A stretch of 64,000 nt of DNA from an uncultured Verrucomicrobiae bacterium (GTDB lineage Bacteria; Verrucomicrobiota; Verrucomicrobiia; Limisphaerales; JAFGQR01), in contig CAWBHS010000100.1 in NCBI GenBank assembly GCA_963788655.1, positions 1 to 64,000 of the forward strand. The letters are read 5' to 3'. Position numbers and translations under genes: made by a program. Below the pieces are notes generated by a model. It did not search any database, was not told the origin of the DNA, and worked only from the letters and a program-made list of their open reading frames with translations. Of the stretch, positions 1-4,112 are shown one piece after another. How positions within the stretch are numbered: the first letter of the stretch is position 1; each line of letters opens with the position of its first letter.

Positions 1-109
1 ACCACTTAGCGTAATCGCGGGTGGCGCTTCTTTTCGACCAAGGCCCCCTGCTTCAAACTGATCAAACGGAAACTGATTGGCCAATGCTCAGATGAAAAGG
101 AGAACTGTC

Positions 110-1144
110 ATGCCATGCTTTGCCGCCCTGGATGTCTCGCAGGAGACGACGGCCATCTGCGTTGTTGATGACGATGGCACCATTATTGCAGAGACGACGA
201 TTGCGACGTGTCCCGACGGGATCACAAACTTTCTGAAAGACAAAGCACCGAACCTATCACGTGTTGGTCTTGAGACAGGCCCTCTTGCTGTCTGGCTGTG
301 GAACGAGTTGGCGGCACGTCAACTGCCTGTCCTATGTATCGATGCCCGCCACGCCAATGCAGCCTTGAAGATGCGGCCTGTCAAAACGGATCGAAACGAC
401 GCGGCCGGTTTGGCTCAGATCATGCGCGTCGGTTGGTTCAAACAAGTGCGGATCAAGAGCCATGACTGCTATCAGGTCCGTTCGTTGCTTACAGCGCGTG
501 AAACGCTGGTGCGCATCCGGGTAAAGATCGAGAACGAGCTCCGTGGCCTTCTGCGGACATTTGGAGTTCTGTTTGGCAAGCGCGTGGGCGGATTCACGGG
601 GCGCGCCCATGAGATCATTTGTGGTGAATTGGAAGCGTCGCCAGAAATGCGGATTATTGCGGAAACCTTGATGAAGGCCAGAGCGTCCGTATGCGATCAA
701 ATCAAGGTTCTGGACACACGGCTTGCGGCGATCGCCAGAGCGAACCCAACCGCCCAGCTGTTTATGACTGCGCCCGGTGTGGGAATCATTACCGCGCTGT
801 CAGTTGTGTCGGCATTCGATGACGCCTCACGCTTCAAAAGGTCATCAAGTGTCGGCGCATATCTCGGGCTGACGCCAAGACGATACGAATCCGGTGAAAC
901 CAGCAGAAATGGACGCATCTCGAAGCAGGGCGACAAGATGGTGCGAAAGCATCTCTATGAGGCGGCAACAACCTTGCTGACGCGCAACTTGCGATCTTCG
1001 TCCTTAAAGATCTGGGGTATGAAGTTGGCAAAAGTGTCCGGCTTCAAAAAGGCGCGCATTGCGGTTGCCCGAAAACTTGCCGTGGTTCTTCACGCAATGT
1101 GGAAAACCAACACGCCATTCCGCTGGACCCAGTCGGCAGCATGA
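110..1144 (+). CDS. IS110 family transposase/recombinase (DEDD RuvC-like + Tnp20 domain)
   Basis: Motifs ALDVS, GLETG, KTDRNDA (DEDD), APGVG, YLGLTPRRYESG (catalytic Ser) and AVARKLA. An AGGAG RBS at 98-102 precedes the ATG at 110; the ORF track starts at 77. Confidence 0.97.
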   Translation: MPCFAALDVSQETTAICVVDDDGTIIAETTIATCPDGITNFLKDKAPNLSRVGLETGPLAVWLWNELAARQLPVLCIDARHANAALKMRPVKTDRNDAAGLAQIMRVGWFKQVRIKSHDCYQVRSLLTARETLVRIRVKIENELRGLLRTFGVLFGKRVGGFTGRAHEIICGELEASPEMRIIAETLMKARASVCDQIKVLDTRLAAIARANPTAQLFMTAPGVGIITALSVVSAFDDASRFKRSSSVGAYLGLTPRRYESGETSRNGRISKQGDKMVRKHLYEAATTLLTRNLRSSSLKIWGMKLAKVSGFKKARIAVARKLAVVLHAMWKTNTPFRWTQSAA

Positions 1145-1169
1145 TCAGGGATAAATTGCTCGACTAAGC

Positions 1170-1345
1170 CAACGGACGCGTCCCCGCCGGGACGTATGGC
1201 GCGGATCAGACCGTCCCTCTGAATGCACTGCACAATGAAGCAAGTGCGAGGACCACTTAGGTCGATCCGACCATCCGACGCCAACATGCGGCGATCCGTC
1301 GAGATCGACCGCGGAGAGAACCATGAACCCGGCGCACGCCAAGGC
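1170..1345 (+). ncRNA. Candidate bridge RNA / seekRNA of the IS110 element
   Basis: Hairpin 1178-1195. Stem 1202-1212/1260-1269 encloses an internal loop (1213-1223 and 1249-1259) closed by stem 1224-1229/1243-1248. A second stem-loop spans 1279-1334. Loop strands match target and donor sequences. Transcript ends are unknown. Confidence 0.75.
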
Positions 1346-1359
1346 AAAAATCAAACAAC

Positions 1360-1380
1360 TTGACCAATGCGATTAGAGAA
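1360..1380 (+). promoter_or_regulatory. Outward-facing -35 (TTGACC) at IS right end; half of a putative circle-junction promoter
   Basis: TTGACC at 1360-1365. Joining the right end to the left end places CAAACT 18 nt downstream. Confidence 0.5.
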
Positions 1381-1785
1381 CTTCAGTGGGGGCACTTTAC
1401 AACCACTTTAACTATGACCGCAGCTTCTCTAGCAGACCCATCTTCAAGACCAACCGAACCGCCGCCCTTGACGAGTGGCGCAGTCTTTTTCGTCAAAAGC
1501 GGCAGGGGCAATTTCCTAGCTGAGACTGGTTCGAATTCGCCTGACAGCACCTACCGGTGTATTCCGGGCAGAACCAATTCGAGGTTGCGGACGTGCTGGG
1601 AGAGGAATTTTTCCGTTGTGCATAATTTAAAATGTAAATCATGCACAACAGGAAAAGTGGCAGCCCGCAGGGTTGTTGCAGATTCCAGCGATAACAATGG
1701 GGTAGGTTGTCCAACTGACCGGATTGCCTTCATTGAACACAAAGCGGAAATCTCTGCTTTGTCCAACGCGAAAAACCGCTCCAAC

Positions 1786-2170: not shown

Positions 2171-2442
2171 AAATGATGACACATCCAGCCGCCAACAGCT
2201 CTGTCCCTCCCTTCAGCAATACGTGGCCGTGCCCTTCTGGCGGCTCGACTCAGCATATTGCTGGATAAAGCGTAGGAGAAATCAGGGATCTACGGAGTCT
2301 CGCCCTATCCCGACGATTTGGTATCCATCCGTGTAATCCGGGCAATCCGCGGTTCCATCCCGTTTTCTCGGATTTCGCCGGATTTTGCCGCTCGAGATTG
2401 GAACGATTCGGGCTCTTTTCGGCGTCTGGTCGTTCGCTGATC

Positions 2443-4112
2443 CTAACCCGGCGTAGCCGGAACCAAGAGTTTGGGTAAAGTTGGTGCATGAATGCACCGA
2501 TCAAAGCGGGCAGTGATCTCCAATCCAAACTGCTGGACAGACGTTACGCCAAAGATATTGAGGGGACGCTCGGCTGCTACGACCGTCTCATTGTCACTGG
2601 TATGCTCGGTCGATGTGGGGCATCCCGACGCCATGACGGCCAGCAGCTTCGGCATCTGAATATCCGCTGCTTTGGTCTGGTGCGTCTTCGCCGAACCCTT
2701 GGGCGATCAGGTGCGCGATAACGCCATCCTGCTGGCCCGTCAGGCCGGTCTGGAAATCACATTATTCTGGAACGTAAGGGGCTGCGCAAGGAAGCGCGGG
2801 TCGCTGAGATTCTTGAACAGCGCGGACGGCATCCCGGCCTGGTCCACATCTTCTCCGCCATGAGATCGTGCCAATGTTTCAAGCCCTGGCACGACCGGAA
2901 GACCGGGCGCACGGGACTGCAAGCTCACCGGCGGACGGGTGCCTGCACTACTACTTCTATTTTATCGACGAGCAGTTGGGCCTGGGGTTACATGCGCGTG
3001 CCCACCTGGCTGCCCTTCCGGCTGCAAGTCTACTTCAACCAGCACGCCTGGCTGGCCAATCAATTGCGCACGCACGGCGGATCCCCCATGGGCTGGCCGA
3101 CAATACGTTTGTCTCCTGCGGGGATTGGGCGAAGGCCCAGGCGTTGGTTACGAGCTTTCGAGAGATCAAAGTGTTGGGCGGCCCGCCTGCACGCCCTGGC
3201 CGAGGAGTTTTGCCGGTGGTGCAAACAGTTTCGCGGCGGCTACCACTGGAGTCTCATGCAGGTGGAGTATGCGCTGGACGTGGTGTTCAAGCGCGCCGCC
3301 GCTGCCTGCGTCCGGTTTACCAGGAGATCAGCCGGCAGGCCATCTTCACGGTGAAGGCACCGGACACTCGCCCGGTTCCTGAACAAGCGGCTTCGTCCGG
3401 GGAGGCTGAACGGCGCAGGGGAGCGACTTTCATACGCGCGTCGAAGGCACGCGCATCAAACACCAGCTCAACCGGCAGGCGATCAAGATGTATGACAAGG
3501 CCGGACGCGTGCTGCGCCTGGAATGCGTGAGACAACGACGTGAGCTTTCTATCGACACCACCGCAAGGTGGAACATCGGGATGGCAGCAGCGACTATCGG
3601 GTGGCGGACCTAAAGAAATCGATCTTCAGCCTGGGCGATCTGGCCGGGTTGATGCGGGCCGGCTGTGCAAGGTATCTGGAGTTTATCGGAGAGTTGGAAG
3701 ACCGCAGCGGCGGGCCGACCAACTTGGATAAAATCAGCCGGCCAGTGACGGATCGACTGGGAGCGGAGTTGGCGCGGGTTCAACTTTTTCCTCGGGCACG
3801 ATCTGACGGTGCTGCTGGGGATCGTGCGCGGCGAGTATCAAATCAGCGGGATGAGCAACCGGCGGCTGCAAGCGGTGCTGCCAGGAAAGAGCAGCAGACA
3901 ATCGGGCGAATCCTCAAGCGGCTGCGGCTGCACGGATTGATCAAAAAACGGCAAGACCTACAAGTATTACCTGACGGAACTGGGACGGCGCGCGGTGCTG
4001 GTGGGACTCAAACTCAAGGAACACCTGATCGTCCCAGGGTTGGCCAACGCCAGCGCATAAACCCTCAAATATGTTGCGCCTCTTGCACAGGATTTTCCCG
4101 GTAAGGGACTAA
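2443..4112 (+). mobile_element. Degenerate putative transposable element encoding a ~500-aa protein with a C-terminal wHTH (family often labelled MarR-like)
   Basis: Left end CTAACCCGGCGTAGCCGGAACCAAG (CCGGC-GTA-GCCGG hairpin). Right end ...GGGACTAAC is followed by an 11-bp tandem duplication. Coding fragments are spread over all three + frames. Confidence 0.55.
2488..4060 (+). pseudogene. Multiply frameshifted transposase/replication-initiator-like protein
   Basis: Fragments GTLGCYDRLIVTG, CLHYYFYFIDEQLGL, MRVPTWLPFRLQVYFNQHAWLA, WSLMQVEYALDVVFK, IKMYDKAGRVLRLEC (3482-3526), LKKSIFSL, ILKRLRLHGLIKK. Confidence 0.7.

Follow-up and report, generated by a model that had tools for sequence, protein, structure and literature searches.

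A compact IS1111-group insertion sequence whose predicted bridge RNA is set to the left end of IS3-family elements

The window analysed here, a stretch of 64,000 nucleotides that starts with the first base of its contig in an assembly of an uncultured Verrucomicrobiae bacterium, opens with a small IS1111-group element (Table 1), and we are highly confident that this is, as far as sequence can tell, an intact insertion sequence with a two-loop bridge RNA encoded 3' of the recombinase gene. Similarity with relatives, whose elements mostly measure 1346-1393 bp, spans positions 1 to about 1394, and the noncoding ends comprise 106 bp on the left and 235 bp on the right. The recombinase scores 245.6 bits against NF033542 (cut-off 140) and also matches PF01548 and PF02371, which provides a DEDD RuvC-like domain and a Tnp domain with the catalytic serine. 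D8, E55, D94, D97 and S261 are invariant across eight aligned proteins, with S261 in a GL-P----SG motif (residues 253-262), and judged by its predicted product the DEDD/Ser recombinase gene is intact. The closest named element among the best 60 plasmid rows is ISMno22 from Methylobacterium nodulans (47% identity); the clade is about 25-30% identical to those named elements of characterised kind that matched, including an ISPa11-type match at 29.8%, and the match to the IS621/ISCro4 proteins covers residues 216-338 alone (E 5-7e-9).

Table 1. Positions of the element and its predicted parts in the window, with the basis of each assignment.
Feature	Position	Strand	Basis or remark
Left target flank remnant, all that is present on the contig	1..3	+	Window start equals contig start
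Left core copy AC (bottom strand GT)	4..5	+	Junction agreement in relatives
IS1111-group element, 1376 bp, single core counted	4..1379	+	Comparison with relatives
Candidate -10 box TAGCGT	7..12	+	Proposed; 17 bp from the -35 box solely in the circular form
Left subterminal inverted repeat TAATCGC	12..18	+	Reverse complement of 1369-1375
Variable left-end segment, previously called left flank	44..50	+	Homology, lack of conservation
IS110-family recombinase, 344 aa	110..1144	+	NF033542, PF01548, PF02371
Predicted bridge RNA	1175..1335	+	Conserved structure with covariation, 47 sequences
5' hairpin	1178..1195	+	96% of cells paired; two-sided change in 1/6 pairs
Target-binding loop	1202..1269	+	Conserved structure, covariation
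5' target guide	1215..1223	+	Complementary to right-flank top strand 1382-1390, 8/9
3' target guide	1248..1256	+	Identical to left flank plus core
Candidate target-loop handshake dinucleotide	1257..1258	+	Equals first two donor bases after the core, 35/38
Donor-binding loop	1275..1332	+	Both strands match the circle junction
Donor 5' guide	1278..1284	+	Against left end 6-12, 6/7
Donor 3' guide	1315..1321	+	Identical to right end plus core 1375-1381, 7/7
Candidate -35 box TTGACC of junction promoter	1360..1365	+	Proposed; TTGAC conserved by eye
Right subterminal inverted repeat	1369..1375	+	7 bp
Right core plus outer 18 bp of interrupted IS3-type left inverted repeat	1380..1399	-	TA end; CA in most relatives

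Relatives were collected from a GTDB scan, which gave 36 loci whose named lineages are mostly Alphaproteobacteria and whose best member, L001 from Roseovarius, is 99% identical, and from 61 metagenome loci, 4 plasmid loci and genome searches. The 155 anchor hits correspond to 107 distinct records, 38 of them with both junctions. Records with deleted or truncated target loops, duplicated right ends or doubtful matches (10 named) were left out of the guide tests, as were those whose right flank is shorter than 12 nt and 7 that lack the hairpin anchor; this gave a test set of 86 elements, 34 of which have sufficient left flank. Permutation tests were carried out by cluster at four clustering thresholds with 20,000 permutations each, the clusters being not fully independent. 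The tree of relatives was built from the collected loci alone, and the assignment to IS1111 is one by features rather than by placement among ISfinder proteins. Besides the clade of the window, it contains three sister clades that share the RNA scaffold and each carry other conserved targets: 1) L116, L117, L118, L124, L125, L134, L138 and L154, 2) L142, L144 and L147-L151, and 3) L121, L122, L127, L129, L130, L133 and L175.

The window by itself cannot single out the core, since ACTT is common to both ends over 4 bp. In the 38 elements for which both junctions are available, two neighbouring positions are the same on the left and on the right in 37 and 36 cases; for the following two the numbers fall to 28 and 25, and elsewhere to 2-4, apart from one position at 29. 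We therefore place the core at the AC of positions 4-5 and 1380-1381. CT and TT were considered as cores and dropped for AC on this table. Together with a comparison of filled L012 and empty L182, the same table shows no target duplication beyond the short core. Upstream of the three flanking bases on our contig, relatives read GG(A/T)GG. The left and right subterminal repeats co-vary among relatives, where they are 7-13 bp long, and the strict repeat leaves terminal extensions of 8 bp on the left and 4 bp on the right; the 7 and 3 bp typical of IS1111 are obtained only when one mismatched outer pair is counted. In other samples the unit also ends near 1394, because assembled contigs of read sets X1, X2 and X18 diverge from the window at 1394-1396 and continue into different flanks.

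Two kinds of irregular end were observed. The left junctions of L010, L137 and L008 carry three additional bases, a repeated CCA, directly left of the core, possibly the scar of an imprecise insertion or excision. In L004 (1594-1700) 72 bp of the right end are duplicated in tandem, and the join is at an AC that the element end shares with a site within the DNA of its donor loop; it looks as though the right end had served the element's recombinase as a substrate, which fits an AC core.

The noncoding region downstream of the gene holds the predicted RNA. Its 5' hairpin, basal stem (1202-1212/1260-1269) and 11+11-nt internal loop all lie where the preliminary description had drawn them, and the stems carry compensatory changes among 47 relatives. 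Of the 9 pairs of the basal stem, 6 show two-sided changes, and 93% of its cells are paired; the loop strands occupy 1213-1223 and 1249-1259, and the inner stem begins at 1224. Over the whole structure, evaluated in 47 representatives of 85 sequences, 88.8% of cells are paired against 30-47% in slid controls, and two-sided changes number 115 against 37 in shuffles, while by the mere number of pairs that change on both sides the structure does not exceed shuffles (89/500). In an independent prediction, RNAalifold returns the donor stem as well as the hairpin and basal stem. By itself, the region folds no better than its shuffles (z -1.05), and for 1196-1275 an alternative closed fold is favoured over the open loop by 1.9 kcal/mol, which bears out an earlier caveat that another fold competes. 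The RNA lies at the right end, 3' of the gene, and not at the left end as in the IS110 (IS621) group, whose members also lack long subterminal repeats. Rfam returned nothing within the region and a single chance match outside it, and viral contigs gave no match to the donor-loop pattern. One RNA-library contig of a relative covers 1047-1324 (277 nt); it reveals neither the strand nor the ends of a transcript, and may be DNA.

Both strands of the target loop follow the sequences that flank the element. The 5' guide matches the right flank at 6.4-6.8 of 9 positions against 5.0-5.3 after permutation (86 elements, 13-47 clusters), and the 3' guide matches the left flank plus core at 6.9-7.2 of 8 against 5.0-5.3 (34 elements, 10-25 clusters); none of the 20,000 permutations reached the observed value in any of the eight tests (p < 1e-4). 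Within the near clade alone (60 elements), a fixed-register test gives p values of 0.002-0.007. For the window, whose left comparison is limited to ACC plus the core as only 3 nt of left flank are present, positions 1252-1260 equal window positions 1-9 at 9/9, a match seen in 1 of 5000 shuffles, and no shuffle in 5000 gave a guide pair of such quality. Wholly different targets carry matching guides as well, at 9/9 in L118, 8/9 in L122 and 8/8 on the left in L129, and so do the further unrelated targets of L142/L147, L148 and L151. Because the guides covary with the flanks, the identification as a bridge or seek RNA is strongly supported, and with it the predicted capacity of the target loop to encode both target halves of a reprogrammable IS110-family recombinase. 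The top-strand match comes first, as is described for IS1111 seekRNAs, where it lies 5' of the bottom-strand match (PMC11187229).

The 5' guide is loose: L009, L013, L040, L047 and L050 score 4-6/9 or fit only when shifted by 1-2 nt. In L009, L013, L033, L040, L074 and L090, moving it by 1-2 nt gives a far better match, with 9/9 at +1 in L040 and L013. Such shifts suggest a register slip, or mobilisation by the RNA of another element.

What these guides read in the IS3-aimed clade is the end of another mobile element. A CA stands at a fixed offset right of the junction in 41 of 60 near-clade elements, and intact copies of the target are found in L182, L189 and L191. Twenty near-clade loci have 150 nt of flank or more: in 13 of them the reverse strand encodes IS3 OrfA (PF01527) to the left of the junction, 1 has a weak match and 6 have none in the frames scanned; in L001, ORFs including an OrfB-like frame match NF033516, each under the whole-protein cut-off. 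An Afipia genome has both an empty and a filled site, the empty-target pattern being found in 1 of 5 genomes. Compared with annotated IS3 left repeats, the guides of the window give 8/9 + GT + 8/9 in two of three and 5/9 and 8/9 in the third, and they match the right repeats worse (4-6/9 and 7/9). The core falls on bases 19-20 of the left inverted repeat, and this is where the clade inserts. The targeted elements are ones that we take to belong to the IS407 group. In 8 loci with long flanks no right partner repeat was found, so the interrupted IS3 copies may be incomplete. From 1399 to 1566 lies an IS6-like remnant (71% against IS6 regions of plasmids); a 22-bp hairpin comes next, at 1608-1656.

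The donor-binding loop, missed in the preliminary description together with the IS3 identity of the target, has an inner stem with two-sided changes in 4 of 7 pairs and a weak outer closing helix (76% paired, no two-sided changes). In 33 of 38 elements (24 A:T, 9 T:A) the final base of the donor 5' guide is complementary to the first base of the donor, and donor-side covariation is restricted to few positions. A donor-binding loop has been predicted for IS1111 elements (PMC11208160). In the target loop, the candidate handshake dinucleotide follows the donor in 14 of the 17 informative cases, in which donor and target differ, and the target in none, these 17 cases coming from few clades. The donor-loop dinucleotide equals the donor in 0/38 and the target in 6/38, with its first base equal to that of the donor in 13/38. 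In the IS3-aimed clade, a target-loop handshake would be neutral, because donor and target are both TT at these positions.

While the ends, AC core, guides and target are established by comparison of sequences, the following order of events is a proposal. The element would circularise, as IS621 and ISEc11 lead us to expect (PMC11208158, PMC11187229), and the joined ends would make a promoter from the -35 box at 1360 and the -10 box at 7. This candidate, assessed by inspection, is weak, with 8/12 agreement to the sigma-70 consensus; a promoter and terminator scan of positions 1-1700 in linear form, outside which the circle junction falls, returned none, and no circle joints occur in 4 assembled contig sets. 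The RNA would be cut from the junction transcript and then bound by the recombinase. In the target loop, base pairing would join the 5' guide to the right flank (top strand) and the 3' guide to the left flank and core (bottom strand); the donor loop would pair likewise with the circle junction, and the DEDD/Ser sites would exchange strands at the core without duplication. With guides set to bases 10-27 of an IS3-family left terminal inverted repeat, the element would land at bases 19-20 in a single orientation, facing away from orfA, and probably disable its host IS3.

Other arrangements of the same parts were weighed. The preliminary description had the element run from 51 to 1382 around a CT core, with the 5' loop strand reading a left flank at 44-50 and the 3' strand reading 1383-1389, in the order of IS621. 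Both 6/7 matches on which this rested are present, and CTTCA does stand at 51 and 1381; their meaning as guide targets is lost, however, since conserved sequence reaches window position 1 and 44-50 lies in a variable part of the left end, which puts that left boundary 46 bp off and its CT at 51-52 inside the element. Among relatives these pairings are at chance, with 4.03 against 4.06 of 7 for the 5' strand (37 elements, 17 clusters, p 0.59) and 3.90 against 3.96 of 7 for the 3' strand and right flank (86 elements, 31 clusters, p 0.73), and shuffling the noncoding region yields two such matches at any place in 569 of 5000 trials (11%). We regard this geometry as practically untenable. The sides of the guides are swapped, the 5' strand reading the right flank and the 3' strand the left; what survives is the kind of system, an RNA guide with both target halves in its internal loop, and the covariation of loop and flanks proposed as its check. 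A closer competitor is that the target loop alone (about 1196-1275) acts as a seekRNA; the protein would then recognise the ends by their subterminal repeats, and the second domain would be a dispensable part of the precursor. A short 82-nt RNA sufficed for movement of ISEc11 (PMC11187229), the donor-side matches are short and mostly invariant, so that their covariation is thin, and the second domain has a weak outer helix. Against this, no part is more conserved than the second domain, the circle junction is matched by both of its strands, and the donor 5' guide varies along with the left end (7/7 in L121, L133 and L149, and the switch from A:T to T:A), which makes the seekRNA-only arrangement unlikely and favours two loops.

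A separate question is whether this copy belongs to its apparent host. It is rather probable that the guides are right and the copy is inactive or non-resident, a Rhodobacteraceae fragment mis-joined to the contig start of an unrelated genome. The near-identity to the Roseovarius element speaks for this, as does the finding that only 1 of 30 relatives of this assembly matches 1-2250 at all (48 bp, E 9e-4), while of 151 genomes from the Roseovarius family, 4 have homologues of 1760-2170. The assembly, whose estimated contamination is 5.6%, holds a single copy of the element, its only other IS110 match being a distant fragment (25%), and no match to IS3 OrfA or OrfB; repeats of the host start only at about 2257. 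On the other side, the composition signal is small, recent horizontal transfer would look alike, and the source reads were not found (the best read set shares 0.27 and none contained half the words). A mis-join or contaminant is likely for the first 2.2 kb; it concerns the host and is compatible with the bridge-RNA mechanism.

According to PMC11187229 and PMC11208160, IS1111 elements have a long noncoding region downstream of a gene for a 330-350 aa protein with a GL-P----S(T)G motif, and their subterminal repeats measure 7-17 bp (PMC11208160), usually 11-13 bp (PMC11187229). The window has such repeats, a downstream noncoding region, a protein of 344 aa with the motif and the corresponding guide order. 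ISEc11, ISPa11 and ISKpn4, described in the same two sources, likewise have a short left end and a long, RNA-bearing right end, subterminal repeats, a DEDD protein (here 344 aa) with GL-P----SG and no target duplication; they differ in their distant protein and other target, and our 7-bp repeats are at the bottom of the known range. With IS621 and ISCro4 (IS622), known from PMC11208160 and PMC11208158 and from PDB 8wt6 and 9t56, the element shares target and donor loops, a 2-bp core with a near-invariant T on the bottom strand and a handshake-like dinucleotide after the 3' guide, but the RNA lies upstream there and downstream here, and here the 5' guide ends short of the core.

Read on the bottom strand, the element has a GT core with a nearly invariant T, a 5' guide that equals the left target, a 3' guide that covers the core and the handshake dinucleotide that goes with the donor. 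We lean slightly towards the view that IS1111 bridge RNAs would embody the IS621 mechanism on the opposite strand, and that the clade would be specialised in parasitising IS3 left ends, with repeated retuning of its 5' guide to keep up with variants of the repeat (near-clade p 0.002-0.007). Extended Data Fig. 10c of Durrant may already draw IS1111 in this opposite-strand layout. If true, the reading would explain the 'reversed order' that PMC11187229 took as a sign of another mechanism.

No new kind of system is revealed here: this is a small IS1111-group element of known mechanism with its guide set to an IS3-family left end, and the targeting of the ends of other elements (IS4321/IS5075) and of IS3 genes (ISEc21) was already known. 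IS4321 and IS5075, reportedly described by Partridge and Hall in 2003, are said to be IS1111-group elements with a fixed insertion place in the Tn21-family terminal inverted repeat; they resemble our element in entering the terminal repeat of another mobile element, which is of the Tn21 family there and an IS3-family left repeat here. ISEc21 resembles it in RNA-guided insertion into IS3-family elements and differs in belonging to the IS110 group, with an upstream RNA and a target in the DDE codons instead of a repeat (PMC11187229). A literature search by title and start of abstract, with ISfinder, subscription papers and bioRxiv supplements outside its scope, returned no report of IS3-repeat targeting, nor of handshake or donor loops in IS1111, and three end motifs are absent from the readable text supplements of PMC11208160 and PMC11187229. 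The element is of value as a compact and intact bridge recombinase of IS1111 type for which the ends, the core, the four guides and the natural reprogramming have been mapped; it is directly testable and bears on whether IS1111 and IS621 share one mechanism.

Downstream, a frame-broken small gene at 1738-2170 has Rhodobacteraceae homologues and matches no Pfam family. Positions 2257-2357 hold a short REP-like repeat with 59 copies in this assembly (33-nt core, at most 4 mismatches), and a host repeat of about 1.67 kb occupies 2440-4110. Its frames are broken and overlap, and Pfam gives no match; it has two further copies (96%) on contigs C7 and C27 and is probably an unclassified insertion sequence.
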